This document shows positions 5,377 to 61,731 of a DNA stretch of 64,000 nucleotides, piece after piece. The translations under genes and the position numbers were made by a program. The notes below the pieces were generated by a model. That model was not told where the DNA came from. It was given only the letters and a program-made list of their open reading frames with translations, and did not search any database. Position 1 is the stretch's first letter. Each line of letters starts with the position of its first letter. The stretch is from an uncultured virus (IMG/VR IMGVR_UViG_3300044630_006741) (Duplodnaviria > Heunggongvirae > Uroviricota > Caudoviricetes), in IMG/VR virus record IMGVR_UViG_3300044630_006741, one strand, 5' to 3'.

Positions 5377-7170
5377 TTAAGCCATATTACTAGAAGATCT
5401 ATTCAATCCAAGAGCTGCTAGCTCGTTAGATGACATATAAGAATTGAATTCTTTTCTGTTATCGTTCCAGAATTTAACAGCTACTTCCGCGTTCTTTTCA
5501 GGATCGTGCACATTTGCTGCAGTCAAACCATATTTCTTGCCATATCCAGAGTTTGGATCTAGAGCGAAAAGGCCCTTGTATCTATTGTTTCCTGAGTTAG
5601 GATTGAACCCAGATTCCTGAGACGCCACTGCTGCTAAGAAATCAAGAGGGAAAACGTTTGCATACTTTTGAAGTATCGCTTTTATTTCAGGATGCTTTGG
5701 TAAATCTCTTCTGCCTCTTTCTAGCATTTGGTCGAATTTCTTCTTCTGATACTCTGTAAATAATTTAGCAACTAGCTGGTCGTTACCTTGGTCATAAGCT
5801 GCTTTTATTCTAGTCTTATATTCACCATCCCATCCTCTATTTCCAACGTTCCCCTTTATGTGGTTACTTTTGCCTTCCCATCCTCTCATGAACCATTGTT
5901 TTCCGTTAGATGAGAATTCCGGTTTAGAACCCAAAGCAACTTTCAAAAGCTCAGCAGCTCCAGCAGATCCTTGGTTGTGTGATAACCAATAAACCCAAGA
6001 GGTCTCGCCATCACCCAAACTGGTGTCACCTATAATAACATCAGAGCCTGCCATGTCTTGGCTTCCCTGTACTACTTTACTGAGGTCTTTTCTGCTGAAT
6101 CCATTCTCTCTTAATCTAGCGATCAAAGAGGAAAGGAAAGCTAGATCCATTACTGATCCTTCACCAGCTACGTTGTATTTTTGTTTAAAATCAGATACGG
6201 ATCTCGCAGTCTCAGGACCGTATAGACCATCTGCACCGTGTATAGGTAGATCAAAGCCTAGGAACTTAAGTCCTATCTGAACTCTTTCCACCATAGGATC
6301 GTATACGTAATTTGATGGACTCTGTTTGGTTTTGGTTTCGTTATTGTTGATAGCATTCTGTATGACATCATAGAATTCCCTCGTGCTAGCATCTGTATCC
6401 AGACCCTGTATGATTTCTCCGCTTTCGATGTCTTCTGCTTGAACAGGAATTTCTCCTTTAATCACGCCATCTATAAACTCTGTTAGCTTTTCCATCTCTG
6501 GTGTACTTTTACTAAGAGGCTCTGCGAACTTATCTTTTCCTTTTTTAATACCTATTTTAACAGGCAATCTATCAAATCCTAACTTGTCCCATAGTTCCTT
6601 ATAATATTCATTTATCTCCGAGGGTTCCTGAACTGTAGCGCCGTTTTCTATATTTCCACTCTCCCACATCCATGTAGGCATTTCTGCTTTATCCTCTGTG
6701 TTATAACCCCAACCGCTTCCGGGAATTATGAAAAATTTAGAGGCATTAGGGAATATCCTCTTTAACTCGATCTTAATATCCTTAGCATCTTCTAGCATCT
6801 GCTCAGAATATTGATACTTGTCACCCAAACCAAGGGAAAGAAAAACATACGGCATATCCGGATGTTGGTCTTTATACTGCTCTATCATTTTCAGATAGTC
6901 CGGAGTAGAGATATTACCAGAAGACCATATTCCTGATTTTATTTCGTCTCCGTTTACACTTCCGGCCCTTGTCCCCCCGTCGAATATTCTAGCTATTATG
7001 CTATTGAAAAAAGAAGCGAGATTATCACCTACTACTGCCGCCTTCGGTCTATTAGAGGATGTTTCGTTTAACGCCTTAAAGGAACGAAATCCTTCTATTC
7101 TTCCCTCGTTTACTCTTTTTTCTGACGAGATCTTGAAGAATCTACTAAAATTTAACAAATGTTTTTCCAT
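5377..7170 (-). CDS. SGNH-like domain + peptidoglycan-binding domain + SLT lytic transglycosylase
   Basis: VQIGL..LGF..GADGLYGPET..V.DF (PG_binding_1); AVASQESGFNP...GLFAL...DPEKN (SLT). Confidence 0.8.
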   Translation of the reverse strand: MEKHLLNFSRFFKISSEKRVNEGRIEGFRSFKALNETSSNRPKAAVVGDNLASFFNSIIARIFDGGTRAGSVNGDEIKSGIWSSGNISTPDYLKMIEQYKDQHPDMPYVFLSLGLGDKYQYSEQMLEDAKDIKIELKRIFPNASKFFIIPGSGWGYNTEDKAEMPTWMWESGNIENGATVQEPSEINEYYKELWDKLGFDRLPVKIGIKKGKDKFAEPLSKSTPEMEKLTEFIDGVIKGEIPVQAEDIESGEIIQGLDTDASTREFYDVIQNAINNNETKTKQSPSNYVYDPMVERVQIGLKFLGFDLPIHGADGLYGPETARSVSDFKQKYNVAGEGSVMDLAFLSSLIARLRENGFSRKDLSKVVQGSQDMAGSDVIIGDTSLGDGETSWVYWLSHNQGSAGAAELLKVALGSKPEFSSNGKQWFMRGWEGKSNHIKGNVGNRGWDGEYKTRIKAAYDQGNDQLVAKLFTEYQKKKFDQMLERGRRDLPKHPEIKAILQKYANVFPLDFLAAVASQESGFNPNSGNNRYKGLFALDPNSGYGKKYGLTAANVHDPEKNAEVAVKFWNDNRKEFNSYMSSNELAALGLNRSSSNMA

Positions 7171-7238
7171 ATTCCTTATATATCCTACGGTGATTTGAAA
7201 TAATTTTACTCATATAAACTAAAAAGTTCTAAAATATT

Positions 7239-7460
7239 ATGGCAGATTTTTGTACTAAGTGTCATCACGAACACGGCTTTCCAGGTAATCCAGGTATCGA
7301 CGTAGAAAATATTTTCGAGTCACTCGAAGAGGGATATATGATGAACGTTGGCATTTGTGAGGGGTGTGGAATAGTAGCTGTTGCTAAGAGAAACGACCAG
7401 TGTATAGTGGCTAGAGAATCCACAGTTGATAGTTTCGTTTGGGATCCGTATGAGGATTAA
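7239..7460 (+). CDS. small Cys-rich (CxxC x2) protein
   Basis: MADFCTKC...ICEGCG. Confidence 0.65.
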   Translation: MADFCTKCHHEHGFPGNPGIDVENIFESLEEGYMMNVGICEGCGIVAVAKRNDQCIVARESTVDSFVWDPYED

Positions 7461-7636
7461 CCCCCGTTAATAGGCCACTTACCAATTTTCTTAAGGTAAG
7501 CAATTGCTGCATTTCCCTGATCCGCAAATGGATCGAATTCATGCCCTAAATGTTCTTTCGGTAGATTGATTTCTCCACTAGCAGCTTTCAATCTATCTAA
7601 CTTGTCTGCAATAGCCTTGATGTATTCATTGTTCAT
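7457..7636 (-). CDS. small hypothetical protein (59 aa, not in ORF track)
   Basis: Manual translation MNNEYIKAIADKLDRLKAASGEINLPKEHLGHEFDPFADQGNAAIAYLKKIGKWPINGG; GGATATAT just upstream on minus strand. Confidence 0.55.
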   Translation of the reverse strand: MNNEYIKAIADKLDRLKAASGEINLPKEHLGHEFDPFADQGNAAIAYLKKIGKWPINGG

Positions 7637-7690
7637 GCTATAATATATCCGGCCAGCGAAATAAAAGGAGGATAGCTGTCTAAAATAAGT

Positions 7691-8719
7691 ATGGAAAAAA
7701 AGAAAGTTTTAGTTACAGGAGGATTGGGGTACATCGGTTCTCACACGGTTATATCACTCTTTGAAAACGGATTCGAACCCGTTATTTTAGATAATCTCAG
7801 CAATTCAAGTCCATCCGTTATCGATAGTCTACAGAGCATATTCGATGGATATAGACCACACGTTTATCTTGAAGAATTGAGGGACAGAAAGGTTCTACTA
7901 GAGATATTCGAGGAACATAAATTCCATGGAGTCATACATTTCGCAGCTAGCAAATATGTGGGCGAGTCTGTTACAAATCCACTGAAATACTACAAGAACA
8001 ACGTAGATGGTATATGCTCACTGATCTCTGTCATGCTGGAGTATGATGTGAAGAATATAGTTTTCAGTTCATCCTGCTCCGTTTATGGTGACAGCCAAGA
8101 ACAACCGGTTCACGAGGAAATGTTTAGGTACAATCCTGCTGCAAGTCCATACGGTCACACCAAACAGATAGGAGAGAGAATGCTGGAAGAATTCGCTAGA
8201 GCTTATGGTCTTAGATGTCTTTCTCTTAGATACTTCAACCCAGCGGGTGCTCACGAATCAGGAGAAATCGGAGAACTTCCGAACAGAAAAGAATCCAATC
8301 TATTTCCAATAATGTGCAGAGCAGCGGTGGATCCTGAATCAACACTGACTGTATTTGGAAAAGATTACGATACGTCAGATGGATCTTGTATCAGGGACTT
8401 TATACACGTTTGCGATCTTGCAGATGCACACGTTAGATCACTAGATGTGCTAGATGAGCAGGAAGGATCCTATCATGAGCTAATCAATATAGGTACAGGA
8501 AGAGGCACCTCGGTTTTGGAATGCATAAAAGAATTCTCGGATTCAAATGATGTTGCAGTGAAATATAAAATAGGTGAGAGAAGAGCTGGTGATGTTATGA
8601 AAGTTTGGTCATCAACGGCTAAAGCTGAGGCACTGCTAAAATGGAGTCCTAAAAGAACACTAGGTGAGATCTGCAAATCTTCTTTCATGTGGTACCAAAA
8701 ATCCACCACCAGATCCTGA
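7691..8719 (+). CDS. galE: UDP-glucose 4-epimerase
   Basis: VLVTGGLGYIGSHT, DNLSNS, HFAA.K.VGES, FSSS, PYGHTK, LRYFNPAGAH, RDFIHV.DLA. Confidence 0.95.
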   Translation: MEKKKVLVTGGLGYIGSHTVISLFENGFEPVILDNLSNSSPSVIDSLQSIFDGYRPHVYLEELRDRKVLLEIFEEHKFHGVIHFAASKYVGESVTNPLKYYKNNVDGICSLISVMLEYDVKNIVFSSSCSVYGDSQEQPVHEEMFRYNPAASPYGHTKQIGERMLEEFARAYGLRCLSLRYFNPAGAHESGEIGELPNRKESNLFPIMCRAAVDPESTLTVFGKDYDTSDGSCIRDFIHVCDLADAHVRSLDVLDEQEGSYHELINIGTGRGTSVLECIKEFSDSNDVAVKYKIGERRAGDVMKVWSSTAKAEALLKWSPKRTLGEICKSSFMWYQKSTTRS

Positions 8720-8742
8720 TATATAGCATAAAATAAAACTCA

Positions 8743-9111
8743 ATGAAAATTAAAAGACTATATGAAGATGCAAGATACCGTGACTCACAGATAAAAGATG
8801 CGGTGAAGGAATTTATCTATTCTAACAAAGACAATATAGATAGCATGGCTTCAGAAGAACTATGGGAACAGATCTACGATCTTCTAATATCTAATTTTCC
8901 AGATTACGACGAGGATGTTCTAATTACAACATTCAACAAAGAATATGGAACACCACCAGAGGAACTAACAGAGGATGGCGAAGAAGATGACGGGGATTTT
9001 AAAAAGACTGACGGTCTACCTGGTATGTCTTACACATCCTGGGCAAGATCCGCTCTAGGTGTCAACCAGAAATTAACAGAATCTTCGATAAAAAGATTAG
9101 GAGATTTTTAA
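8743..9111 (+). CDS. acidic hypothetical protein (late, leader-bearing)
   Basis: GATATATA at 8718; N-terminus MKIKRLYED. Confidence 0.7.
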   Translation: MKIKRLYEDARYRDSQIKDAVKEFIYSNKDNIDSMASEELWEQIYDLLISNFPDYDEDVLITTFNKEYGTPPEELTEDGEEDDGDFKKTDGLPGMSYTSWARSALGVNQKLTESSIKRLGDF

Positions 9112-9165: not shown

Positions 9166-10596
9166 TTATAGATCGAAAATTGGATATCCCTGATCTGGGT
9201 ATAATTTTTTAGCTATCTTGACTCTTAATGATTCGTTGATAAATTTAGATAGCATCTTAACCTTCTCGAAATCACCAGCATCTAAAGCTGCATCTATTTC
9301 CTTCTCGATTTCTCTTTTAGAAAGGTTAGAGTAATAATTATCGTCTTTTACCTCATCGCCCATCTCGACTTCTTCAGGCTCTTCCGCGTATGTCTCTATT
9401 CCCGCCTGAGCAAGGTCATATTTACTAAGCTCGTCTTTTATTGAATCTATGATCTTCTGGGTTTCTCTCTTAGCTATATCTAGTGCCTTTGCATCACCCA
9501 GAACAAAACCGTTTAATATGTTTCTAAAAAGCTCTAAGAATTTAGCAGGCTCCATAACCATAAGCTCACCTGCTACTCTTTCTTTAAGATTCTCCATCTC
9601 TTTAGACTCCTTGAAAGAGTTGATAAACTCTCTTAAGTCTGCGGCTATATAAGGACCATATCTAAGATCCTCTAGTTCATCTGCTAGTGTATCTGTATTC
9701 ATAACCACTATTTCAGCTGTCTCCTCATCTGAAGGAATGTTGTTAGCAAGAATTAGCTGCCATATTCCTTTAATTGCTTCGTGTAAAAGCATAGCAAAAT
9801 CATGGCCTCTTGCTATAACACTAATCCCTGTAAGATCAGATAAATCATCCTCTGCATCTTCAATGTTTCCTTTTTCTAGATTCTTTAAGAAATCCTCTAG
9901 ATCTTCTTCCTTATCTGGATTTTCTTTCTTCTCTTCCCATGATACTTTAGCAGATCCAGCAAAGCCATCTTTATTGGCTCTCCACATTTCTTTTTGAACC
10001 TCCATTGGTATTGACCAGTCGAAGAAATCCGCTATTTCTGTTATCTTATTAAGAAGCTCGATGTATTTTCTTCCATCTTGCTCACCCATTAGACCTAATA
10101 TAGCATCTCTTGTCTCAGGAAGGTTCAATGCTTTTTTAACCGATTTAGCTTCTCCCTGTCCGATGTTATTACCAATCTTTCTCATTTGAATGGCACTGAT
10201 AATACCTTTGTCTTTCAATTCTTCCAATTCTGGGAATTGTGGCTCTTCCGGTGTTTGCTCCATTGTGTCCTGGATCTCACCTTTCTTAGCAAATTTGATA
10301 TCAAGGTTAACCCCATCTAATATTTCAGAATACAAATTGAGAATAGCATCTTTTGCGATTTGCTCTAGCTCTTTTTTATATGGTTCCTGTAGTCTTCTGG
10401 ATTCACCAACCATTCCCATGAATCTACCGATATCTGCACCGTGTGTTCTTTTAAGTTGATCTAATTTCTCTTTAGCTCTTCTCTCAACGTCAGATAGGTA
10501 TTTTCCACCTCCATCTTCAGATTCACCGGGTATTCCTGGATTTCCTCTTAGAGAAGCTTCGTTTAAGTACTCCTCGAAATTTTTAATAGTTGCCAT
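9166..10596 (-). CDS. hypothetical protein, probably virion-associated
   Basis: 476 aa; leader MATIKNFEEYLNE; UVR-like IDAALDAGDFEKV near the C-terminus. Confidence 0.75.
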   Translation of the reverse strand: MATIKNFEEYLNEASLRGNPGIPGESEDGGGKYLSDVERRAKEKLDQLKRTHGADIGRFMGMVGESRRLQEPYKKELEQIAKDAILNLYSEILDGVNLDIKFAKKGEIQDTMEQTPEEPQFPELEELKDKGIISAIQMRKIGNNIGQGEAKSVKKALNLPETRDAILGLMGEQDGRKYIELLNKITEIADFFDWSIPMEVQKEMWRANKDGFAGSAKVSWEEKKENPDKEEDLEDFLKNLEKGNIEDAEDDLSDLTGISVIARGHDFAMLLHEAIKGIWQLILANNIPSDEETAEIVVMNTDTLADELEDLRYGPYIAADLREFINSFKESKEMENLKERVAGELMVMEPAKFLELFRNILNGFVLGDAKALDIAKRETQKIIDSIKDELSKYDLAQAGIETYAEEPEEVEMGDEVKDDNYYSNLSKREIEKEIDAALDAGDFEKVKMLSKFINESLRVKIAKKLYPDQGYPIFDL

Positions 10597-10898: not shown

Positions 10899-12431
10899 AT
10901 GTACACTAAAAAGATAACCTACAACTCTCTCTTTGAGAACGTTCAGCAGGCAAAGGATTTCCTATTCAAGGAATACGCTAAGAAATACAGGAAAGAAGTA
11001 AAGGACCTAGACGAGGATATCAAAAAGGAAATTCTTAGAAATCCAGATTGGGTTGAAATCAGAGACCTCAATGTTAAAACTCCGGGGTACACCTACCTAC
11101 TAACTAAATTCTTCTTTGAGGAAGGAGCTACAATGGAGATGATTAAATCTATCCACGAGAAACTTTTGAGATTCAAACAGAATCTTAACGAGCTTCCAAT
11201 GACAGTAGATCAATATGCTAAGATAGAGAAGACCCCAGATGATTCTAGACCTGGATGGGAGAGATTAGAAGATGATCTAAATATAGTAGAGCAAAAGAGA
11301 GCTTTAAAGGATCTCACTAATGAATTTGCTTCGGAGCTAAAGGACGATTATAAGAAAGCCACAAAAGACCAGGTAAATGCTTTAATGGACATATCCAATA
11401 GAGCTAAAGAAAGAGGAGATGAATGCTTCAAGCAATTGCTAGGATATAATCCAGAGACCCAAAAATACAACCTAAGGGTTTATAAAACAGTTCAGCAATT
11501 TATAGATTCATCCAATCAGTTTCTAGAAAACTACGACAAGCTAACCAATGCACAAGAGGATATGGAAGAAGTTCCAATATACTCCGAGGAAATAAAGGAA
11601 CTTGGCAGTTCGGTTAAGGTTCTTTATAGAGATAAAGATTATCTATCGATTTCAACCAGAACTGGTAAAGCACAAACCAAGCTATTTGGCGACAAATGGT
11701 GTATAGGTAGAGCAACTTCTACTTTCTGGAGTTACGGAGGTGGAAAAATACAACTTAACACATTCAATTTCACAAAGCCAGTAACTGATAAGTATAGCTT
11801 AATTGGTATGACGATCTCACCAGACGGGAAGGTAACAGATAGCGCTGATAAGTTTAATAGTGCTCTCCCGGATGCAAAGGGAACTTATTTTTGGACGGTA
11901 TTTGAAAAACTGGGATATCCAGCTAAATTTATTAACGCAGTAAAGGAAGATTTCCCAAAAGAGGTTAAGTTGAGATTGGCAATGGAGAATTTCCACAAGT
12001 TCTCAGACGATTCTGCAAACTCTCTAAATCCTAGAAAGATAGTGACATCACTGGTGTCAATGAACCAAAACATTGCAAAGGGTATAATGAGCCCTGAGGA
12101 ATGGGAAGAAATATCTGCGGATGTATCTAGATTGATCTTTGATGAAATGGGACTAAAGCCATCTGACTTTCTTGAATTCTTTAAAGAAAACGGAATATTC
12201 ACAGAATCAATGTGGAACGTATTCGATGAGATTATCGGAAACAATTACGCAAAAGATGACATGGAGAAGATCTACACAGCATCCAATGAGGGATATGACG
12301 ACATAGAGCTTATCTACCAGATGTTTAAGAAGAAAGGCGTTGGTATAAAGAAAGAAGACGCAGAGGTTTTAAAAGAGGTAATCGATAGAAAGGATGAGTT
12401 CCTTAAAGCTATAAAGGCTAGAATCAAATAG
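10899..12431 (+). CDS. hypothetical protein (510 aa)
   Basis: Long ORF with KWCIG motif; GATATATA at 10866. Confidence 0.75.
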   Translation: MYTKKITYNSLFENVQQAKDFLFKEYAKKYRKEVKDLDEDIKKEILRNPDWVEIRDLNVKTPGYTYLLTKFFFEEGATMEMIKSIHEKLLRFKQNLNELPMTVDQYAKIEKTPDDSRPGWERLEDDLNIVEQKRALKDLTNEFASELKDDYKKATKDQVNALMDISNRAKERGDECFKQLLGYNPETQKYNLRVYKTVQQFIDSSNQFLENYDKLTNAQEDMEEVPIYSEEIKELGSSVKVLYRDKDYLSISTRTGKAQTKLFGDKWCIGRATSTFWSYGGGKIQLNTFNFTKPVTDKYSLIGMTISPDGKVTDSADKFNSALPDAKGTYFWTVFEKLGYPAKFINAVKEDFPKEVKLRLAMENFHKFSDDSANSLNPRKIVTSLVSMNQNIAKGIMSPEEWEEISADVSRLIFDEMGLKPSDFLEFFKENGIFTESMWNVFDEIIGNNYAKDDMEKIYTASNEGYDDIELIYQMFKKKGVGIKKEDAEVLKEVIDRKDEFLKAIKARIK

Positions 12432-12492: not shown

Positions 12493-13077
12493 TTAAAAAG
12501 ATTGGATTTCGCCAATAAGTCTTTTTATAGTGTCCTCCATTTCTGCTTTATCCTCGGAAGCTTCCACTATATTATCAAATAGGATAGCTAGGTTAGAGAT
12601 TAGCTTAGCAAAAGAGTCAGTGAATTTCATATTAGAGTCTCTTTTGTTAAGAGAATATAGATCTACAACGATCTCTTCTATAAATTCTATAGCGGTATTG
12701 AGATTGCCTCTGTACTTCCATTCTCCGTCCTCGTCACTAATTGATCCTTCCATAAAGTCCTCAACATCGGAGTTTATCTTATCAATTTCCGATTTTGTAT
12801 TGGAAGCTGAGCTAGAAGCAGAGACTAATTTTTGAGCGTCTTCCAGCTTCATTTTTTCTGCGCTTTCCTTAGGTATTCTGAATGATCTATCAGATGATGA
12901 ACCTATAGGCTGGATCACCCAGAAATTACCATCTAGATCTATTACCTGACCCGGTCCTCTATATGAATTAACATAGGATCCAATATCGATCACATCGTCA
13001 TCGCCATGTATTTCTCTATATGGATCCTCCAGGAATTTATCCAGATCAAAGTCCTCGTATATCTTTATATGTCTCAT
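12493..13077 (-). CDS. hypothetical protein (leader-bearing)
   Basis: Start placed at MRHIKIYEDF (ATG 13077), directly after the upstream gene. Confidence 0.7.
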   Translation of the reverse strand: MRHIKIYEDFDLDKFLEDPYREIHGDDDVIDIGSYVNSYRGPGQVIDLDGNFWVIQPIGSSSDRSFRIPKESAEKMKLEDAQKLVSASSSASNTKSEIDKINSDVEDFMEGSISDEDGEWKYRGNLNTAIEFIEEIVVDLYSLNKRDSNMKFTDSFAKLISNLAILFDNIVEASEDKAEMEDTIKRLIGEIQSF

Positions 13078-13078: not shown

Positions 13079-13279
13079 TTAGCAGAATATTCTCTTAGCT
13101 TCTGTGTAGTCATCCTTAGAAAGATCCCAGTCTTTCATTTTAGGTTTTAAGTATTCCTTTGCCTCTGCGAAAGTTCCCTTAGCGTTCTTCTTAAAGAACT
13201 TTTCAAGGTGAGAGTAGATAGCGGGATGAATTCCTTTCTTCTCCGCAATGTAAGTTTCAAAAATTTTAATGTTTTTCAT
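13079..13279 (-). CDS. small basic protein with T4 CTS-like leader
   Basis: MKNIKIFETYIAE; GATATATA on minus strand at 13287-13294. Confidence 0.7.
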   Translation of the reverse strand: MKNIKIFETYIAEKKGIHPAIYSHLEKFFKKNAKGTFAEAKEYLKPKMKDWDLSKDDYTEAKRIFC

Positions 13280-16338: not shown

Positions 16339-17385
16339 ATGACATTTATTCTAGATTTTAAAAAATTTATCCTTAAAGAATCGGAAACTACCGAACTTCC
16401 CGAAGTAAGGGAGTTTAAAGATGCTTTTGAAAACTCGGAGTGGGGTAAAATATTAAGTAGGGGATCTACAATAGATCCAAAGAGAACCGGTAGGATCTAC
16501 CTGAAAACATCCTATTTGCCATCTAAGACACAGATAGAAAAAAGGGGTGACAACTGGGTTTACTGGTACAGTAGCGCAGGAAGAGATTATGGGCATAAGT
16601 ATATGCCAACTGCGGAGCTATTAATAAGAGAACTTATTTACGACTCCATAAGAAAAGGAAACAGCTCCATTCCAAGAAATGAGTTGGATAATTTTTTAAA
16701 AGATCATGATGTGTCTTTAAAGGTTCTTAGCGATCCTAATGTCACGATTGAATATCCCAGAAACGGTCAAATCTCTGCATACCAAGCTATAAAAGATCAC
16801 AAAGCGGAGGCATTGGGTATAATCCAGGATCTATCAGGGATCAGCTCTCCGTACCTTGATTTCTTAAAAAAGCAAGGATTTACTGTAAATGGTGAAGGTA
16901 AGGACTTAGAAATTACATTTAGATTAATCAGGCTTGTACCTGGTGAGGACCAACCGGGATTACCCCCGTTTTTCAAAGACGTTAAGGAGGTAATGGAAAA
17001 ATCAGGAGCGGTTGAAATATTTAGATCAGATAATTATGTTGGTTTAATTTTTAGACTTAAGGATCGTGATTATTTTAGTATTAAAATAACAGCTTCCGGT
17101 GAGGGTACAAGCGAACAAAAAGGTGCAGGGCTAAATATAATCACATTGGGATATAGCGACGAGAGGGAGCTAGTAAAAGCTCTGGATGATATCTTGAGAA
17201 AACAAATATCTAGCGAGCTTAAGCTATTAATAGGAAGAGATGATAAAATAAGCACAGACAGCCCGCTTGATGTCATCAAAAAAGAAACCAGGAGGTTCTT
17301 TAGAGAGGGCTCTAGTGTAAATATACCGGAGGACGAAAAAAAATATCTGATAGCTAGACTGAGGACTACGAATAGGATTATATAA
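16339..17385 (+). CDS. hypothetical protein (leader-bearing)
   Basis: 348 aa; MTFILDFKKFILKE; ends ARLRTTNRII. Confidence 0.7.
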   Translation: MTFILDFKKFILKESETTELPEVREFKDAFENSEWGKILSRGSTIDPKRTGRIYLKTSYLPSKTQIEKRGDNWVYWYSSAGRDYGHKYMPTAELLIRELIYDSIRKGNSSIPRNELDNFLKDHDVSLKVLSDPNVTIEYPRNGQISAYQAIKDHKAEALGIIQDLSGISSPYLDFLKKQGFTVNGEGKDLEITFRLIRLVPGEDQPGLPPFFKDVKEVMEKSGAVEIFRSDNYVGLIFRLKDRDYFSIKITASGEGTSEQKGAGLNIITLGYSDERELVKALDDILRKQISSELKLLIGRDDKISTDSPLDVIKKETRRFFREGSSVNIPEDEKKYLIARLRTTNRII

Positions 17386-17522: not shown

Positions 17523-18620
17523 ATGCGCAATATATTAAGCTTTTCACTTTTTGAAAGCGATGGTAAAACAAATTTAAGCTGGGACTCTGATTATGATTCG
17601 CTAGAGTCCAATCCTCTATGGACCGAGCTAAAGAATAGAGGTTTTGTTAATGTGTCGAGTCCCATTATGGTTAAAAATAAGAGTCTACTTCTTAAAAATC
17701 CAGGATCTCCCTGGTTTTATCCAGAAGGAGTGGTTCTACAGAGATCAGGGTATATTAGAGACAAAGGAGCAAAATCAGGATTTGTAAGAAACGATCTTAT
17801 AGTGATAGACGATATGCTCACATACCTCATAGAAAGATACGATAAGGATCTCAAAAAAATGGGGGGAATCCTATCTTCCATGGAGGGGTCAAATTTAGGG
17901 ATGAGCCATGTGAAATTAATTTCCTCCGGAACTAAAGCAAAGTGGTATTACGACAAATCAACTGGGAGGGTTAATGTGGACGGTAAGATTAATCTTCTTA
18001 TAAGTAGCAAAGAGGATAAAGAAACACTATCTGAAATCAGCTTCGGAAGAATTAAAACCCAATTTACTGTAACATTTAGGGACAGAGCTTTTGACGACGG
18101 AGAAATTGGATCACTGGTTTACGCACCAAGTTACGTGGGGGATGCTTTTTTAATACAAGGGGGTAGACTTAAAGACCTAGAAGGTTTAGGTGAAGTTAAA
18201 GGAACAATCTCTATAAAGGGTGAAAACTATTATAATAGATTATCCTTAGAGGGCATATCGGAGTGCAAGTGGTTAAATATAGGAGAATTTTTTAACATAC
18301 CCTATGACACTAAACACTGTCTTCTAGTTTTAGAAAATGGCTGTTTAGCAAACAACTGGACAGTAAATGGACCGGTTATGGGAAAGGACATCCATGCAAC
18401 CAGATCAAATGATAATATTGCAAGGTCGATAATATTAACCGTTCCAATAATGCAAGAAGCCTCGCTTTTAAAATATTTCAATGAAAATCCATTGTCTATT
18501 GATCTATTAGATAGCCCAGCAGAAAGAATAAAAGGCATCAAGAATTTTATATTTTCTAAATTGGGATACACCGATGAGGATATTGCTGCTGTCAAAAGAC
18601 AGAAGAATAGGATATTATAA
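17523..18620 (+). CDS. hypothetical protein with degenerate LRR-family C-terminal half
   Basis: TGRVNVDG..ISFGRI..SLVYAPSYVGDAF..LKDLEGL resembles the cap and repeats of the LRR array. Confidence 0.65.
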   Translation: MRNILSFSLFESDGKTNLSWDSDYDSLESNPLWTELKNRGFVNVSSPIMVKNKSLLLKNPGSPWFYPEGVVLQRSGYIRDKGAKSGFVRNDLIVIDDMLTYLIERYDKDLKKMGGILSSMEGSNLGMSHVKLISSGTKAKWYYDKSTGRVNVDGKINLLISSKEDKETLSEISFGRIKTQFTVTFRDRAFDDGEIGSLVYAPSYVGDAFLIQGGRLKDLEGLGEVKGTISIKGENYYNRLSLEGISECKWLNIGEFFNIPYDTKHCLLVLENGCLANNWTVNGPVMGKDIHATRSNDNIARSIILTVPIMQEASLLKYFNENPLSIDLLDSPAERIKGIKNFIFSKLGYTDEDIAAVKRQKNRIL

Positions 18621-19343: not shown

Positions 19344-20192
19344 ATGAAAAGATTTAAAAAACTATCCGATTTTTCTCAATCGCTAAATGAGGATGATATA
19401 TCAAGTCTCACAAATGCCCACCCTTGGGAAGAGATCAGTAAAATGGGTACAAAACTCGTAAAAGGTCAGCCAATTCAACTAACGGCTAATCTTTTTGGAA
19501 CAGGTGTAGATAGAATAGATGTCAATTCCACATCATTTCAAGATGCAGTCCAGATTATAAGATGGCTGTATGTACAGAGTTACAGCGGTGCCGTTCCTCA
19601 ACAGGGGGCAAAATTGATAATTAGAGGCTCCGCATCAGCAGTCGGTTCTAGTTCTGGGTATGACAACTTCGCTTTAGCGCAGAGAAGGGCAAAAAATCTA
19701 TACAATGCTTTGGAGATATGGTTTGATAAAAACCATCCAAAAACGGATATTAAACCGGGCGAGGTCGAGGGCCTAACAGAGGATGTATATTGGTCATACA
19801 TAGAAAAGTACGTACCTATTAAGCAAGAAGCTGTAGTTGGAAGCGCAACCAGAAAAGGTTCACCTGAAGCATTAGCTGAGCAATGTGTGTATCTAATATG
19901 GGTACCTGTAGGTCAAAAAAACGATTTTCAATATGATTTGGTACAGCCTATAGATGACACGAGAACAGTACTTCCTCAACCACCAATAAGTATTATTAAA
20001 CCAGTAAACCCAGGTTTTAGTTTTAAAATAGAAAGATGCGGCTGCTGCGGAAGGCCATTCACGCAAAACGATCAATATTCTTGGGTTATGCAGAGATATC
20101 TTTGGTCTCTTAATGAACTTAAAAGTGGGTGGTTGAAAACTAAAATGGGTGATACTGTTTGGAGCTGGCTTATTAATATGTCAAAAAAATAA
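19344..20192 (+). CDS. OmpA C-terminal-like (peptidoglycan-binding) domain protein
   Basis: LF..G...I, IIRGSAS..G...DNFALAQRRA; GATATATA at 19312. Confidence 0.5.
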   Translation: MKRFKKLSDFSQSLNEDDISSLTNAHPWEEISKMGTKLVKGQPIQLTANLFGTGVDRIDVNSTSFQDAVQIIRWLYVQSYSGAVPQQGAKLIIRGSASAVGSSSGYDNFALAQRRAKNLYNALEIWFDKNHPKTDIKPGEVEGLTEDVYWSYIEKYVPIKQEAVVGSATRKGSPEALAEQCVYLIWVPVGQKNDFQYDLVQPIDDTRTVLPQPPISIIKPVNPGFSFKIERCGCCGRPFTQNDQYSWVMQRYLWSLNELKSGWLKTKMGDTVWSWLINMSKK

Positions 20193-20771: not shown

Positions 20772-21080
20772 ATGAGTATAAATGAAATAGAACAGATAAA
20801 GAACGATATAATAAGCCACAGATGCTGGATTAGATCGGTCGTTAAATCGGTAAATACACCGGATCAATTAGAATCAGCACAAAGACTGGTTGGAAATTGG
20901 AAAACCCTTACATACAAAAAGATAGATTCCTTTAAGCCTTCATTTTTCTCATCCAATAGTGGATGGAGAAGTCTTCTGGAACTTTTCATAAGAGTAGAAA
21001 AGGAATTAGAATCACACTTAGCCGGTAAAAAGGCTTTAATCAGAATAAAACATTTAGAAGACGTTTACGAAAATGCATAA
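20772..21080 (+). CDS. hypothetical protein
   Basis: 102-aa ORF coupled to the next gene. Confidence 0.6.
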   Translation: MSINEIEQIKNDIISHRCWIRSVVKSVNTPDQLESAQRLVGNWKTLTYKKIDSFKPSFFSSNSGWRSLLELFIRVEKELESHLAGKKALIRIKHLEDVYENA

Positions 21081-21555
21081 GGTAGAAAAATTCAGTGACT
21101 ATCTCTCACAGATAGAAGTAATGCCGCAGGTTAACAACGGGGAACCTTTCAGTATAGATGGGGAGAATATATCTCCATTATGTTGCTCCCTCATGGGACA
21201 CATGATGCAGGATATGCCTTTCCCTGAAGAGTCAATACCCTCTGTAATTTTCATAGAAGAAGAACAGCCAGATACGCATCCAGCTTTTAAAAGAACTGGG
21301 TACTATGACTTTAAGGATAACTGCATAAACATATACGTTACAGGCAGAGCACTTAAGGACATACTGAGATCAATCGCTCACGAGCTAATCCACGCAGACC
21401 AGCATATCAATAAGGGGCTAGATTTAAGTCCCGCAGTTACAGGATTAGGTGAGGATTCCACTAAAGCCGCTGAAGAGATAGAAGCTGATGCATATCTAAG
21501 AGGAAATCTTGGACTTAGAAAATGGGAGGATAGATTGAAACCGAAATTCAGATGA
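21073..21555 (+). CDS. HEXXH zinc metallopeptidase-like protein
   Basis: LRSIAHELIHADQ ... EADAY. Confidence 0.65.
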   Translation: MHKVEKFSDYLSQIEVMPQVNNGEPFSIDGENISPLCCSLMGHMMQDMPFPEESIPSVIFIEEEQPDTHPAFKRTGYYDFKDNCINIYVTGRALKDILRSIAHELIHADQHINKGLDLSPAVTGLGEDSTKAAEEIEADAYLRGNLGLRKWEDRLKPKFR

Positions 21556-22808
21556 TAGAAAGAGTTAAGAAATACAGGGATCTATTTGAGGGATATCAGG
21601 ATTCTGAATCGGGTAAGGAGGAGTCCAGGGGTCTAACTGAGGACCAGATTAAATTTTTAGATCTGCACTGCAGACAAAAAGGATCATGGACATATAACGA
21701 TGTAACAGGAAAGGTGGACATCAATGGGGATTTCGATGCGAGGGATTATGCACTATATGATCTAGAGGATATAGAATTTGGTGTTGTTACGGGAGTTTTT
21801 TTAATATCATCTAATAACCTAAAAACTTTAAAGGGATGCCCAGAAGTTGTAGGAGGTGATTTCTCGTGTAAAAGGAATAAGAGATTAGAGTCCCTCGAAT
21901 TTGGTCCGAAAAAGGTAGGTGGGGATTATCATTGCAATTCATGTAGCTTAGATTCTCTAAAAGGATCACCGGAAGAGGTAAAAGGTTACTTTGATTTCTC
22001 AGGTAATTACATTTACACACTAGAAGGAGGGCCTAAGGTTGTAGGAGAATCTTTTGTGGGTAAATTAAACAGTATAGAGAGTGTTGAGGGTGCTCCAAAT
22101 TTTGTTGGTGGCAGTTTCAACTTAGCACAGAATAACATAAAGAATCTAAAAGGATGCACTAAAGAAATCGAAGGTGATTTTATTATGTACTCAAACGATC
22201 TGGTTAGCTTAGAGGGAGGACCCACTAAGATTGATAAATCAGCAGATTATTTGATTTACTCAAACTCAAATCTAAAATCTCTGAAAGGATGTCCGGAGGA
22301 AACCGGTGATTTCGATGCATCAGGATGTGGATTAGAAACACTAGAGGGATCTCCTAAAATAGTTAACGGTTACTTTAATGTCTCTGAAAATAAATTAACA
22401 AGTCTAGAGGGTTCACCTGAAGAAGTTATAGGTTTATACAATTGCTCAGGCAATGAAATTAAGGACGTGGTTGGTATATCGGAATTCATAGATGGAACTA
22501 TAGATCTAGAGGACAATCCTATTGAATCACTAAAAGGATTTAATTACGAGGATCCAAAATTTCAGCTAGCTAGAACAATATGGATGACTGATCAAGACGA
22601 CATGCCAAAGGAATTTTTAAAGGACATAGCAAAGACATGCTATGCATACAAAATCTCATGGGAGCAAGGCATTATCAAGGAATGGGACAAAATGACCGAC
22701 GGAGAAAAGGTTAGAATATATAAACAGGCGAAAGACTTCCTATCCGAAGAAGACCTTAAGTACTACGGAGCTATGGAGAGATATCTTAACATGAAAAACC
22801 TATTATAG
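21552..22808 (+). CDS. 22-aa leucine-rich-repeat protein, solitary member of the array family
   Basis: About 11 repeats of NxLxSLxGxPxxVxGxFxC; same TGxVDIxGDF cap. Confidence 0.85.
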   Translation: MIERVKKYRDLFEGYQDSESGKEESRGLTEDQIKFLDLHCRQKGSWTYNDVTGKVDINGDFDARDYALYDLEDIEFGVVTGVFLISSNNLKTLKGCPEVVGGDFSCKRNKRLESLEFGPKKVGGDYHCNSCSLDSLKGSPEEVKGYFDFSGNYIYTLEGGPKVVGESFVGKLNSIESVEGAPNFVGGSFNLAQNNIKNLKGCTKEIEGDFIMYSNDLVSLEGGPTKIDKSADYLIYSNSNLKSLKGCPEETGDFDASGCGLETLEGSPKIVNGYFNVSENKLTSLEGSPEEVIGLYNCSGNEIKDVVGISEFIDGTIDLEDNPIESLKGFNYEDPKFQLARTIWMTDQDDMPKEFLKDIAKTCYAYKISWEQGIIKEWDKMTDGEKVRIYKQAKDFLSEEDLKYYGAMERYLNMKNLL

Positions 22809-22866: not shown

Positions 22867-23223
22867 ATGAAATACTTAAAGAAATTTAACGAGAGCAACA
22901 CCAATTTACCATTTAGAAACGAAGATCTTGTCAAAGACTCTGACATCGGTACATATGAACTATATCTTGATGGAGGTACCTGCTGGGGAATAACATTCCC
23001 AAATGGTTATATGGAAGTTGAAGAGGGTCCACATGAGAGTGTTGGCTATATGAATGGCGAAATAAATGGCATTGCAGTATCGGCAAAAGGATATGACGTA
23101 CCTAGAATACCTGACAAATACTGGATGGGTGAAATGTCAAAGGATGAATTGTTAAAATTTTTAGATAGCGTTATTAGCGGATACGACGATATTGCTAAAG
23201 AACCATTTAGATATAAAATGTAA
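22867..23223 (+). CDS. hypothetical protein (leader-bearing)
   Basis: MKYLKKFNES. Confidence 0.7.
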   Translation: MKYLKKFNESNTNLPFRNEDLVKDSDIGTYELYLDGGTCWGITFPNGYMEVEEGPHESVGYMNGEINGIAVSAKGYDVPRIPDKYWMGEMSKDELLKFLDSVISGYDDIAKEPFRYKM

Positions 23224-23224: not shown

Positions 23225-23869
23225 ATGAAACACGTAAAAGTATTTGAAAATTTTATCAACGAGGGTATCTTTGATTCTTTAGGACTTGGTAAAATTAAGT
23301 TATTTTCTAAAGTGATGACTGACCCGTTTATTTTATCGATACTTCCAGCCATTAAGAAAATGATGGATGCAAATCTAAAGGATCAAAAAAGCTGGATAGA
23401 GGAATATAAGACAATTTTCAGAAAATCTTGCGTTAAATTCGGCGGAGCTAAGAAGGAGGATATAAAGGGAACGTGCAACAAACCGCAGACAGTTCAGAAT
23501 TTAGTACAGTACTTTTTAGATCCAGCTAAGGGACTTCTAGACACAAAGACGTTTACACAATGGGTAGAGGAAACCACAAAAGGTGCTACGCCAGGTGAGG
23601 TTCCTTATAAATATAAAATCAGCGATGTAGACAAATACGTAACAACAGCTGTTGATATTTTAAAGAAAACTGGTGTTTCTGATGGTGACATTAAGAAGAC
23701 AGGAACTTACGCTTTAACAATACTGATTCCTTATATTGCTAAATTTTATACAGCTAAGGACATTGAAGAAACACAGATGGTGAAAAGCGGAAAACTAATA
23801 GACGCAGCTAAAGCTAAAGAATTGCTTGCAGGTGGAGGTGAAAACCCCGACGGAACCATATCAATATAA
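23225..23869 (+). CDS. hypothetical protein (leader-bearing)
   Basis: Start at ATG 23225, MKHVKVFENFINE. Confidence 0.7.
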   Translation: MKHVKVFENFINEGIFDSLGLGKIKLFSKVMTDPFILSILPAIKKMMDANLKDQKSWIEEYKTIFRKSCVKFGGAKKEDIKGTCNKPQTVQNLVQYFLDPAKGLLDTKTFTQWVEETTKGATPGEVPYKYKISDVDKYVTTAVDILKKTGVSDGDIKKTGTYALTILIPYIAKFYTAKDIEETQMVKSGKLIDAAKAKELLAGGGENPDGTISI

Positions 23870-25022: not shown

Positions 25023-25343
25023 ATGGAAAACATTGAGCTTTACGAGTTTTTTAATATAATGGGAAAAAGCAAGGAAAAATCCCTCAAAATATTATTCTGC
25101 GATTCAAAAGGATTGGTTCTAGAATCGGATTCACTTTCAGATTGCATTCATATACTACCAGGTCTGAGTGAACTTGAATTACCCGGAGAAGATAATTTCT
25201 CATCTGTTATCATCTTTTTTAAGGATGGTAAATGTGCAGGTGGATACGAAAACGGTTCCCAGGTAATCACTTGGAACGCTACTAATGAGATAAAGGATCT
25301 GAATATATTTGATCTATTAAGTGAATATAACATCTCTATTTAA
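25023..25343 (+). CDS. hypothetical protein
   Basis: ATG 25023 after GATATATA at 25010. Confidence 0.6.
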   Translation: MENIELYEFFNIMGKSKEKSLKILFCDSKGLVLESDSLSDCIHILPGLSELELPGEDNFSSVIIFFKDGKCAGGYENGSQVITWNATNEIKDLNIFDLLSEYNISI

Positions 25344-25344: not shown

Positions 25345-26763
25345 ATGAGGATAATTAACAAATTCGAGCTATTTGAAGCTCTAAACGAGGGGTCTAGAGA
25401 GATCCCGTCTAATATAATAATAGGTGATTCTCTATCACCTCTTATTGACAGAAACACAACAAAGGCTTCCCTTATAGGAAGTACAGGAAACGAGTCTAAC
25501 CTTTGGAAAGGCGGAATGGGGGTTTCTTGGTTAAAAGGAGCTGTTGATAAGTTCCCGGCAACTCCAGGTGTCAAAAATGTAATCATTGAAATTGGAACTA
25601 ACGGTGCATTTAGTTCCAGGGATGATATATCAGGTCTCGTTTCTTCAATTAAAAAGGTGTTTCCAAATGCGAAACTCTATGTTGTACAGGGGTCATGGGG
25701 ATGGGGAGGCAACGCGAAAGTAACAATAAGCGAAGTCACCGAATACTATAATAGATTCAAAGCTCTTGGGGTTGTAGTCGTTGAGCCACCAATTGGATAT
25801 TCTGCAACCGACACTGAGGCACACCAAAACAAGGAATCAATTAAAAAAATAGGAAAAAACATAGATGCTGTATTATCAGGGCAGTCACAGGTCCCAACCA
25901 ATCAAAGCCCAATAGGTGCAGATGACGTCATAATAAAAACTGATCCATCAGATAAGGATACTGTGATCTATAAATCAAAGAGTGATCCCTACTACTATAA
26001 GATAGTAAATGGCATATGGTTTGCTAAGGGTCCAAAATTAAAGCAATGGACATCACTAGAAAAAAATCAATTAGCAAACAATATACTTGATAAAAGATAT
26101 CCTGGTGTTAGATCCGGATCTGGTGAGATACAATATAAGGAACCGGTAAAAGTGGATCCTGAAAAGATAAGTGGGGATTTTATTAGCTCTGGCTCATTTG
26201 ATCCCGAGAAAGAGGATGCAGGGATATCTAAAACTTACAACATACATCTTATACCTGATAATCTATCCACAACCAAGCCTAATTACAGAAGTGCACAGAT
26301 GCCACTCAAAGATCTTAAGTATTTCCTAGAGAAGTATGGTATAAGAAACGTTATTAGACTAAATGGGGACGGCGGGGACAGCAAACACAGAAAGTCAGAT
26401 CCAGAAACTTCCATACAGGAGGAGAAAAATCTGTGCAATAGCTTGGGTGTTAAATTCAATAAGCTATCTTCAACAAAGGATCAGGATAAAGTAAACGAGA
26501 TACTCTCGGGAGGTAACACTCTAATACACTGCGCTCATGGAGCAGATAGGACTGGCGGTAATGTAGGAGGGTATTTCTACACCAAGAAGGTAAATTCAAA
26601 TCTAGACTCGACAGATGAAATCTGGAATTACACTACGAAATATAACGGATGGAATAGGATGGTGAAGAATAGCCCAGACAAGTTCTCTTCGGGTGGATAT
26701 CTTAGGCAAGCTCAAAAATTCGGGGTTAGGGATCTGGAGCAAGCAAAGTTGCTAGCCAAATAA
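25345..26763 (+). CDS. SGNH-like domain fused to a PTP/DSP-family phosphatase domain
   Basis: IIIGDS...IEIGTNG N-domain; YRSAQ..YGIRNVIRLN..LIHCAHGADRTG (CX5R). Confidence 0.75.
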   Translation: MRIINKFELFEALNEGSREIPSNIIIGDSLSPLIDRNTTKASLIGSTGNESNLWKGGMGVSWLKGAVDKFPATPGVKNVIIEIGTNGAFSSRDDISGLVSSIKKVFPNAKLYVVQGSWGWGGNAKVTISEVTEYYNRFKALGVVVVEPPIGYSATDTEAHQNKESIKKIGKNIDAVLSGQSQVPTNQSPIGADDVIIKTDPSDKDTVIYKSKSDPYYYKIVNGIWFAKGPKLKQWTSLEKNQLANNILDKRYPGVRSGSGEIQYKEPVKVDPEKISGDFISSGSFDPEKEDAGISKTYNIHLIPDNLSTTKPNYRSAQMPLKDLKYFLEKYGIRNVIRLNGDGGDSKHRKSDPETSIQEEKNLCNSLGVKFNKLSSTKDQDKVNEILSGGNTLIHCAHGADRTGGNVGGYFYTKKVNSNLDSTDEIWNYTTKYNGWNRMVKNSPDKFSSGGYLRQAQKFGVRDLEQAKLLAK

Positions 26764-27868: not shown

Positions 27869-27879
27869 GTTTCTATATA

Positions 27880-28809
27880 TTATAGCACTCTCTTCTTTAG
27901 CCTAGCTAGTGCTTCATATCCTTTAATTTCATCTGGTGAAAGATCAGGATTGTGCTTGGCTAAGTATGCCTTGTCGTCATCTGGTATTATTTCCCAGAAA
28001 TACGCGACCGCCTGTTCTAATTTGATTTTAGAATGGTCCATAAGAGCGATAATTCTATCGATTGATTCTTGAGATATCGGGTTACCGTTGGAACGTATAT
28101 AGTCATCATCGATCGGAGGAGCTCCTTCCAAACTTGTGAGTTGATTATTTGCACAATTGAAATATCTACCAACACTATTAGGGGCTCCCTTTAGTGAAGT
28201 GATCTTATTATAGGAACACCTAAAATCCCTTCCAACCTCAAGGGGTCCTCCCTCTAGGGTGGTAAGCGAGTTAGCATTGCAAAAGAAATCACCTGTCACG
28301 ATTTGTGGTGCTCCCTCTAGCGAGGTGAGTCTGTTGCCATAGCACCGGAAACTACCGTCCTCGACCAGTGGTGCTCCCTCTAGGGAAGTTAGCCGATTCG
28401 TGGAACAATCGAAATCTGAAGGGACTTTCTGAGGTGCTCCTTTTAGGGAGACGAGTTTGTTGCTGTAGCATAAGAATCTACGTCCCACTTCCTGTGGTGA
28501 ACCCTCGAGTGAGGTTAACCAATTACCATAGCACAGAAAATCCACACCCACGCTTTGTGGTGCTCCTTCTAATGAAGTGATATCATTTGTGCCACAGTTA
28601 AAATTACCGCTAACATGTCCGAATTTTACACCATTAAAACCCTTAATTTGCTGAGCCCTACAATCGAAATCACCCTCCACATCAACCAATCCGGTATCAG
28701 GATTAAGACTCCACTTGCCACCAGTGCATTTATCTAGCCACCCGATCTGATCTGGTGTTAATTCTGGGCTATTCTCAAATATGTCTATAAATCTCTTGAC
28801 GTGCCTCAT
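27880..28809 (-). CDS. LRR-array protein (8 repeats)
   Basis: Same repeat and caps. Confidence 0.9.
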   Translation of the reverse strand: MRHVKRFIDIFENSPELTPDQIGWLDKCTGGKWSLNPDTGLVDVEGDFDCRAQQIKGFNGVKFGHVSGNFNCGTNDITSLEGAPQSVGVDFLCYGNWLTSLEGSPQEVGRRFLCYSNKLVSLKGAPQKVPSDFDCSTNRLTSLEGAPLVEDGSFRCYGNRLTSLEGAPQIVTGDFFCNANSLTTLEGGPLEVGRDFRCSYNKITSLKGAPNSVGRYFNCANNQLTSLEGAPPIDDDYIRSNGNPISQESIDRIIALMDHSKIKLEQAVAYFWEIIPDDDKAYLAKHNPDLSPDEIKGYEALARLKKRVL

Positions 28810-55819: not shown

Positions 55820-55868
55820 CTCCCGGGGTTCTCTCTTATCTTAGCGATATATAAAAATAAAAAACGGT

Positions 55869-56099
55869 ATGAACCATATCAAATTATACGAGGACTTCGG
55901 ACAAGAGCCGGAGATTGACTTCACCAAAATTGACAGCATCGAGTTCGATGGTGTAGACCACAGTGACGCACCAGACTACTCAGACGCATTCATAATCAGC
56001 TGTGACATAGATGGTAGACCAGCCACTGAGGAAGAGTTGGACATCATTAACAACGATTCAGAGTTCGTTTACAACTCACTAATGGATCAACTCTCTTAA
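55869..56099 (+). CDS. acidic leader-bearing protein
   Basis: MNHIKLYEDF; D.PDYSDAFI motif; GATATATA at 55846. Confidence 0.7.
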   Translation: MNHIKLYEDFGQEPEIDFTKIDSIEFDGVDHSDAPDYSDAFIISCDIDGRPATEEELDIINNDSEFVYNSLMDQLS

Positions 56100-58244: not shown

Positions 58245-58363
58245 GCTTGGTTTGGTTTATATGTGGGGTTAAGAAGGTCTTAGGATTCGGGGGTTTCCTA
58301 AGACCTGTTTTTTTGCTGCGGGGTTATGCCCTACATTAGCGATATATAAAAATAAAAGAAAGA

Positions 58364-58714
58364 ATGAAAAACATCACCACATTCGAAAGCTTCGTAAACG
58401 AGTCGGATTCCAAGTTTGAAAGAAAGCATGACAAATATCTAGGCAGACCGGTTCTCCACGAGGTGAGCTTCCCAGCAAGTGGAACTTTTGATGCCATCGG
58501 CAAGGCAGAGGAATACCTGAAGGATCTTGGCTACACTAGAGGCAGCATGTCTAGAGACGAACCCATCGGATTCGCTCAGGGTGTAGACTATGTTGCTAAG
58601 TGGTACAACATCCCTAAGGAGGACAAGGCTAAGCTAGACGGGGTCATCATCCCAGAGCCTGAGTTCAGAGAGGGCGGAGTACGCATTCTCTTCTTCACTC
58701 CTCCTAATTATTAA
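58364..58714 (+). CDS. leader-bearing hypothetical protein
   Basis: MKNITTFESFVNE; GATATATA at 58341. Confidence 0.7.
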   Translation: MKNITTFESFVNESDSKFERKHDKYLGRPVLHEVSFPASGTFDAIGKAEEYLKDLGYTRGSMSRDEPIGFAQGVDYVAKWYNIPKEDKAKLDGVIIPEPEFREGGVRILFFTPPNY

Positions 58715-60908: not shown

Positions 60909-60958
60909 AACCAGCTGTCTCGCTGAGGTGCTTTACGATATATAGAGAAAACGATAAA

Positions 60959-61405
60959 ATGAAACACATTAAAGTATTTGAATCCTTCGGGACAGGAATG
61001 GAGCCTAACGAGAAAACCATAGTGGAGATCTTCCTAAATGGTGAAAACCCAGACGTTGAATATGGATGCGTTGCAAATGGCGTGGGTAACACACCTAGAG
61101 AGGCTGCTATGTTTGCTCTTCAAGTTGCCTGTGATTGGTTGCTGAATGGAGACGATAGCGTGACAGTAGACGACCTAGATGGGTTTGAGAACTCACCAGT
61201 AATGGAGTACTTCGAGGACGAGAAGGATCTAGAGGAAGCTCTACAAATGCTAGAGATGGGAAAGGTTAAAAAAGACTTCAGAGGTTACTCACTCTTCTCC
61301 TCCCATGGCGACGAGATCGATACGGAGTCTTATGTAAAGTCTAGCCCAGACTCATTAGCACCAATCGGAGGATCCATATTAAGCTCCTACTCCGAGGACT
61401 TATAG
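60959..61405 (+). CDS. acidic leader-bearing protein
   Basis: MKHIKVFESF; GATATATA at 60937. Confidence 0.7.
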   Translation: MKHIKVFESFGTGMEPNEKTIVEIFLNGENPDVEYGCVANGVGNTPREAAMFALQVACDWLLNGDDSVTVDDLDGFENSPVMEYFEDEKDLEEALQMLEMGKVKKDFRGYSLFSSHGDEIDTESYVKSSPDSLAPIGGSILSSYSEDL

Positions 61406-61423
61406 TCCTGTCTAATTCTTTAG

Positions 61424-61452
61424 AAGCCTCGAGACACCCTCGGGGCTTTTTT
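61424..61452 (+). terminator. intrinsic terminator
   Basis: AAGCCTCGAG-ACACC-CTCGGGGCTT followed by T-tract. Confidence 0.7.
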
Positions 61453-61485
61453 GTACATTAGCGATACATAAAGGAAAACAATGGA

Positions 61486-61731
61486 ATGAGACACATATCT
61501 AAATACGAAGACCTTCTGAACGAAGATAAAGGTAGAGATACATTAGCTGAATTGAAAGAAATGGCATTGGGTCAACTTGAGAGAATAGCTGATTATGCAA
61601 ACATGATTAAAGAGAGAATGGAGAAGGGCGAAGAATTAGAGTCCTGGATGTATTCTCAGTTAACTACTTCTTTAGACAATTTAAATGCTGTCCATGATGC
61701 AATGGATGGCAATGACGGAAAAGTAGAATAA
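61486..61731 (+). CDS. leader-bearing hypothetical protein
   Basis: MRHISKYEDLLNE; LESWMYSQLT; GATACATA at 61463. Confidence 0.7.
   Translation: MRHISKYEDLLNEDKGRDTLAELKEMALGQLERIADYANMIKERMEKGEELESWMYSQLTTSLDNLNAVHDAMDGNDGKVE

Follow-up and report, generated by a model that had tools for sequence, protein, structure and literature searches.

A recurrent N-terminal leader resembling the T4 capsid-targeting sequence in an uncultured phage and its relatives

The DNA considered here, a stretch of 64,000 nucleotides from an uncultured virus of the Caudoviricetes (IMG/VR record IMGVR_UViG_3300044630_006741; hereafter the window), encodes 114 called genes and 8 tRNAs, and 30 of those genes (24 firmly, 6 weakly) open with the pattern M-[KR]-[HN]-I-K-x-[FY]-E-x-[FL]…[ILV]xE. 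This shared N-terminal leader is real, and it most likely works as the capsid-targeting sequence (CTS) of phage T4 does, at a much larger scale. By analogy, a large and varied protein cargo is probably packed in the head of the phage, with packaging, cleavage and injection expected to follow the T4 pattern. An earlier, sequence-only reading of the window had described about 30 unrelated proteins with such a leader, and all ten of the N-termini that it quoted are present where it placed them. Its count of genes stands, but the proteins form only 13 firm families, or up to 19, since 12 of the leader genes are leucine-rich repeat (LRR) paralogues.

A hand-written regular expression overlooked several leaders, and scoring with a profile of 12 columns, trained on 22 window N-termini (four of them from the LRR family), was used instead. 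The profile picked out, at 9 bits or above, 28 of the 114 window genes (an in-sample figure) and none of 222 internal methionines, with 0.4 expected when the window N-termini were shuffled; 16 of the 22 training leaders kept at least 8 bits when left out of the training. The window is part of one genome, and the genome-wide tests were run on its relatives. The complete relative G004 (31% G+C), which was kept out of the training, had 38 of 424 N-termini at 9 bits or above, against a shuffle mean of 1.1 and 4 of 1167 internal methionines, and G002, the closest relative compared (95% identity in one protein; it lacks the head module), had 32 of 234 against 0.5 after shuffling. The scan proposed in the sequence-only reading thus found the leader, in window and relatives alike, far above the level of shuffled N-termini. 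The 31 window genes at 8.5 bits or above, of which 56775 is a probable false positive, fall into 20 BLAST families, one of them made up of 12 LRR-type paralogues, so that the same leader stands before unrelated, separable bodies. Nor is it equally common on replication, tail and core genes: none of the 31 annotated G004 genes for replication, tail, neck, portal, terminase, capsid and sigma proteins reached 9 bits, the tail sheath being highest at 8.0, in an annotation that covered 107 of the 424 genes. At C-termini, copies of the motif showed no enrichment (G004, 4 of 396 with a background of 0.8%; window, 0 of 93). A few genes that are preceded by GATATATA and have no N-terminal leader (G004:170514, G004:199460 and G002:126473) terminate in a leader-like peptide.

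The likeness to T4 lies in the register of the residues. T4 IPII and IPIII start M-K-T-Y-Q-E-F-I-A-E (Y4-Q-E-F7-I8-A-E10), and with the profile trained on the window both score 9.3 bits. The leader core, aromatic-x-x-aromatic-I-x-E, is in register with them, its aromatic columns 0 and +3 falling on T4 positions 4 and 7, and the clearest window leader ends F-E-N-F-I-N-E, with the spacing of IPII and IPIII. Passages of PMC9026906 assign targeting by the T4 CTS mainly to residues 4 and 7 and processing to residues 8 and 10, describe an Asp at position 10 as blocking processing while targeting is kept, and give L/I-X-E as the motif after which gp21 cleaves; the removal of the CTS from IPII, IPIII and IPI by gp21 goes back to Mullaney and Black 1996, as reviewed in passages of PMC9026906, PMC9958956 and PMC3012670. 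When leaders were picked without the cleavage columns, which keeps the test from being circular, [LIV]xE stood in the exact T4 register in 18 of 42 G004 leaders against 12 of 382 other genes, in 11 of 34 G002 leaders against 10 of 200, and in 6 of 31 window leaders against 0 of 83. This test passes over the LRR variant of the leader, in which, for each of the ten LRR paralogues of the array, [LI]-[FY]-E is shifted one residue towards the N-terminus. Every sequence-level feature of the T4 CTS was found, except that the evidence for the cleavage site is mixed.

The bodies behind the leader are diverse. In the window they include LRR proteins, orphans, one Cys-phosphatase-like and one metallopeptidase-like protein, and a hydrolase that combines SLT and peptidoglycan-binding domains; most are without a Pfam or PHROG name. 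The body read earlier as a lysozyme does have an SLT domain, and the one read as a phosphatase (25345) has an HCxxGxDRT motif, but its Pfam hits are only sub-threshold. A fold search with the body of 58364 found no match, and a search of the Atlas with the 9166 protein gave no hit. The cargo of G004 comprises eleven LRR paralogues, two SLT hydrolases and one CHAP hydrolase, an adenylate kinase and a RimK-like ATP-grasp enzyme, and its leader bodies are no more acidic than its remaining proteins. Lysine- and glutamate-rich proteins directly behind the capsid gene of G004 have shorter leader-like starts, and in G003-G006 such short starts are found on genes just behind the capsid gene (4.9-10.7 bits in most). 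The LRR arrays of the window (26810-35355, 10 paralogues) and of G004 (G004:38668-48374, 11 paralogues) are orthologous, and the leader variant is uniform within an array and particular to it, suggesting that the two genomes expanded or homogenised their arrays separately.

The leader is conserved as protein and, as the sequence-only reading had supposed, portable: homologous bodies are found both with a leader and lacking one. Among 25 aligned homologues of 58364 (30 were found) the leader is present in 6, and the rest, at 45-67% identity, begin at or near the domain; among 20 aligned of 26 found for 55869, 2 are without it. In a structural model of the 58364 protein, residues 1-17 have a predicted local distance difference test (pLDDT) score below 50 and the body a mean above 80, the leader having had fewer aligned rows.

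The leader genes are a subset of the late genes. There are 18 sites of GATATATA in the window, against 2.7 expected, including all twelve that had been quoted, and 17 of them lie 12-35 nucleotides upstream of a start on the same strand; counted within 100 nucleotides, such starts stand behind 17 of the 18 window sites, 31 of the 34 sites of G002 and 45 of the 55 of G004. In G004 the element precedes the genes for the protease-scaffold, portal, tail sheath, gp25-like and gp14-like proteins, and a gp55-like late sigma factor is encoded. Because of its position before starts and the genes that it precedes, the most plausible role of GATATATA is that of late promoter in this T4-type clade; a lone element shortly before structural genes, together with a gp55-like sigma factor, is by sequence what a T4-type late promoter calls for. 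Most leader genes or operons had been said to follow GATATATA, which holds for operons (22 of 29 leader genes against 7 of 85 others in the window; 18 of 38 against 71 of 386 in G004), but a site directly upstream was found for only 10 of 29, against 7 of 85 (10 of 38 against 29 of 386 in G004). The association itself is evident in both, and yet the portal, sheath and baseplate genes behind GATATATA are leaderless: the promoter marks late genes generally, and not leader genes specifically.

From its position and the genes behind it, GATATATA would be the site from which a phage late sigma factor transcribes these genes. A subset of the late proteins would then begin with a propeptide of 10-13 residues whose aromatic pair (i, i+3), on the T4 precedent, may dock into the scaffold core of the prohead, and a gp21-type protease would cut after (L/I/V)-x-E, where present, freeing the body inside the head. 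The cargo would consist of conserved, core-like proteins encoded next to the capsid gene and of a fast-changing set: LRR proteins, cell-wall hydrolases, nucleotide- and protein-modifying enzymes and acidic orphans. Part of it might be ejected with the DNA, the least secure of these steps. Gain or loss of the leader is observed, and a gene may join the cargo by gaining a late promoter and a leader at its 5' end.

A tentative extension of this mechanism concerns the scaffold. The protease-scaffold fusion of G004 has 14 tandem repeats of 14 residues (the repeat region being residues 291-486), with the core Y-S-E-Y-L-A-E in the register of the leader; of the 42 matches to [FYW]xx[FYW][ILV]xE beyond residue 25 in the G004 proteome, 14 are in this one protein, and 21 G004 genes have a match in their first 20 residues. 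A profile made from the repeats only ranks leader N-termini above others (area under the curve 0.85 in G004, 0.86 in G002 and 0.71 in the window), the Y-x-x-Y-L-x-E frame being the best among 14 offsets; but profiles with permuted columns did as well in 5 of 60 trials for G004 and in 18 of 60 for the window. The repeats all go back to a single ancestral unit. There are 13 copies of the repeat in each of G003, G005 and G006, 11 in LR756502 (16 leaders in 69 open reading frames (ORFs) of a 50-kb stretch), and 2 exact and further degenerate copies in LR756500 (33 leaders in 586 ORFs, 450 kb). No scaffold repeat was found in MaF61 (leaders 0/183), PTm1 (4/280, near noise and atypical) or Lak-A1 (0/113 ORFs, from 110 of 542 kb), nor any match to the repeat core in S-PM2 gp22. 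Leader and repeat are thus both present in three lineages and both missing in three, a small sample, and the key branches of a capsid tree of 11 proteins are open, so that the tree cannot decide between one and several origins of the pair. The capsid propeptides of G003-G006 and LR756502 also end with an aromatic pair before LNE or INE. It is possible, if rather doubtful, that the leader amounts to one free-standing unit of the scaffold's 14-residue repeat, which would load cargo by like-with-like helix co-assembly and be freed by the protease cuts that destroy the scaffold. If true, this would identify the receptor in capsid targeting of the T4 type, account for the spread of the tag to dozens of genes only where the scaffold has the repeat, and make the injected proteome of uncultured giant phages readable from sequence. 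A 2023 review (PMC9958956) still describes as mysterious how proteins come to be placed in the T4 scaffold core, and a clade in which a common tag meets a core recurring 11-14 times in the scaffold is well suited to a direct test of binding.

Other explanations of the leader have been weighed. The association of leader and promoter, and the similar DNA around GATATATA, with its A-rich spacer, at the four single genes 55869-61731, would also suit a by-product of gene expression, the late promoter and first codons having been copied onto many genes so that the DNA or mRNA matters and the peptide does not. That is very unlikely, as the fixed residues of the leader are written with mixed codons (TTT, TTC, TAT, TAC; GAA, GAG) in both genomes, many leader genes are within operons and have no promoter in front, 25 genes behind GATATATA in G004 score below 6 bits, and the pattern persists at 31% and 43% G+C. 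Unlikely, too, is a docking and cleavage tag through which the prohead protease, or a different protease of the phage, would activate late proteins in the cell or set their timing, with no packing into heads. The enrichment of the [LIV]xE site would fit such a tag, as would murein hydrolases and enzymes that could stay inactive until late, and the capsid propeptides with their similar ending; T4 gp21, however, works inside the assembled prohead (passages of PMC9958956), and several leaders have the aromatic pair but no Glu site, as would be expected of proteins that are targeted and not processed, like the T4 variant with Asp at position 10. Finally, the seven-residue pattern is short, and the column-permuted scaffold profiles at times do as well as the real one; the leader could be a general amphipathic helix that directs late proteins elsewhere (to the membrane, the head exterior or a host protein) or governs their stability, its T4 likeness a convergence on a short pattern. 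This we consider quite improbable, given the exact register with the residues to which T4 genetics assigns targeting and processing, and the finding that the leader, in a phage that assembles its head in the T4 manner, is limited to late genes outside the tail.

A CTS-like role remains the preferred reading, and several observations weigh against it. Six of the 22 training leaders (22867, 16339, 21073, 8743, 25023 and 10899) failed when left out, T4 IPI reaches no more than 5.0 bits with the window profile, and in the G004 orthologue of 9166 an IEE site is left but the aromatic pair is gone (2.1 bits). Several leaders, those of 55869 and 60959 among them, have no Glu site in register, and when any position in the following 12 residues is allowed, [LIV]xE is not significantly commoner in window leaders (11/31 against 17/83, p 0.14). 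Some of the cargo, namely adenylate kinase, the RimK-like ligase and several murein hydrolases, is not what one would readily look for in a head. No virion proteome of the leader clade was found in the literature searched, most subscription papers, the original T4 work included, being outside its scope. For the distant cyanophage S-SM1, passages of PMC3037559 report 41 detected virion proteins. Of its 205 called ORFs only SSM1_190, a cytidylyltransferase, reached 9 bits (10.9); this protein is among those detected, with 25 counts (its cluster is given as 1200 nucleotides in the table, against 1164 in GenBank); the third-ranked N-terminus, SSM1_192 (6.7 bits), was also detected, and the second-ranked (7.7 bits) is absent from the list. 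One or two proteins are thus consistent with virion packing, but about one sixth of the S-SM1 genes were detected, and the agreement is therefore not significant. None of 51 PA5oct N-termini in a 50-kb stretch, 24 of them virion-detected, reached 9 bits, and PA5oct is therefore no test of the leader; S-PM2 had 0 of 58 in 50 kb. Three virion-detected PA5oct proteins, gp140, gp150 and gp175, have a short common N-terminus of their own (M-K/R-I/F-x-E/D...E), and three Lak-A1 genes start M-N-K-x-I-K-x-L-[LI]-E.

Gene by gene, the leaders of the window are distributed as follows. On the minus strand, 5377..7170 encodes the 597-residue protein with peptidoglycan-binding and SLT lytic transglycosylase domains, behind GATATATA at 7177-7184 (-). 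The weak leader gene 8743..9111 (+; 122 residues, an acidic orphan, GATATATA at 8718) is one of those that failed when left out. The 476-residue product of 9166..10596 (-) is kept across the clade, and its gene is behind GATATATA at 10868-10875 (-) by way of an 87-residue gene, 10583-10846; a weak leader opens the 510-residue orphan at 10899..12431 (+; GATATATA at 10866). Two minus-strand genes follow: 12493..13077, a 194-residue orphan whose start is the second Met, and 13079..13279, 66 residues, with a leader ending IAE as in T4 and GATATATA at 13287-13294 (-). All leader genes from there to 26763 are on the plus strand: a weak one of 348 residues, an orphan (16339..17385; GATATATA at 16325); a distant LRR-family member of 365 (17523..18620); one of 282 with a weak OmpA-like hit (19344..20192; GATATATA at 19312); a weak HExxH metallopeptidase-like one of 160 (21073..21555); an LRR protein of 418 (21552..22808); a weak orphan of 118 (22867..23223); the 214-residue protein with the clearest full leader (23225..23869); a weak one of 106 (25023..25343; GATATATA at 25010); and one of 472 with a C-terminal Cys-phosphatase-like motif (25345..26763). 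The minus-strand block 26810..35355 contains the ten LRR paralogues and one unrelated gene (31158-31697), the leader being on all, with GATATATA at 35361-35368 and 31146-31153 (-). Four single plus-strand genes complete the set. At 55846..56099, GATATATA precedes an acidic 76-residue gene, 55869-56099, two homologues of which are without the leader; at 58341..58714 it precedes 58364-58714 (116 residues), whose leader is absent from most homologues and unstructured in the model; at 60937..61405 it precedes 60959-61405, an acidic orphan of 148 residues; and at 61463..61731 the one-mismatch site GATACATA precedes 61486-61731 (81 residues). Window genes without a leader include a nucleotide-sugar epimerase (7691-8719), a glutamine synthetase (13361-14407), an Srd-like or HNH protein (14407-14766), a cyclophilin (14784-15218) and a sigma factor (18699-19307).

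The window is best explained as a piece of a T4-type lake phage of roughly 250-320 kb. The protein of 9166-10596 (-), used as a query, matched 8 virus contigs, five of them sized 180-319 kb; a gp21-type protease, a scaffold core and a gp23-type capsid protein are encoded in all four relatives that are at least 90% complete, though not in the window. The stretch is present in 20 sequencing runs, all of them lake metagenomes, 5 being possible sources; no RNA run is listed for it. The G004 capsid protein matches those of an uncultured 462-kb phage, Lak phages, Tenacibaculum PTm1/PTm5 and Flavobacterium MaF61. The host is probably a member of the Bacteroidota, because, in the window, TATATTTG-like motifs, which we take to be the Bacteroidota housekeeping promoter element, stand before many genes of the right half. 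Dozens of small genes fill 38500-64000, many with an upstream TATATTTG/TATATTAG-like motif of their own and four leader genes among them; at 58364 and 61486 this motif abuts the late element. G004:289775-293036 encodes two tandem full-length portal paralogues (555 and 529 residues), both matching the T4-type portal family, as likewise in G003, G005 and G006, and a second, weaker Gp23-family match is found far from the head module at G003:178465, G005:180999, G006:170687 and G002:45478, the last with stops inside the match.

Provided that the tag acts as it does in T4, roughly one gene in ten of these phages encodes pre-made cargo, and the leader yields a list of candidate first-minute effectors and counter-defence proteins that are otherwise labelled hypothetical, among them the LRR arrays, the phosphatase, the kinase, the ATP-grasp ligase and the hydrolases. 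That a CTS lets T4-like phages load various proteins is a known idea, already suggested in passages of PMC9026906; within the literature searched, what is new is the scale and the likeness to the scaffold, and that literature described neither a genome-wide leader of such a kind, nor GATATATA as a phage late promoter, nor the likeness of tag and scaffold. Among known systems, the DarB protein of P1 is alike in that an N-terminal signal suffices to load a foreign protein into the head, and is a functional analogue only, there being no sequence common to the Dar proteins and no T4-type scaffold (passages of PMC9024508). The head ejection proteins of phiKZ and SPN3US, many of them processed after Glu by a gp21-related protease, form a similarly large internal cargo, but the phiKZ cleavage motif is S/A-x-E, and a short common leader is not described in the passages available (PMC9026906). 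The T4 CTS is closest: N-terminal, 10-13 residues, an aromatic pair three apart and then (I/L/V)-x-E, before unrelated bodies, in a clade with a T4-type protease and capsid. The leader here differs in three additional conserved residues in front (H/N-I-K), in its presence on about 9-14% of the relatives' genes (38/424 and 32/234) against three in T4, and in bodies of up to 597 residues that include enzymes and LRR arrays. The late promoter is GATATATA here and TATAAATA in T4, and the scaffold, which in T4 gp22 offers only the partial match KEWLAE, is here fused to the protease and built of repeats with the leader core.

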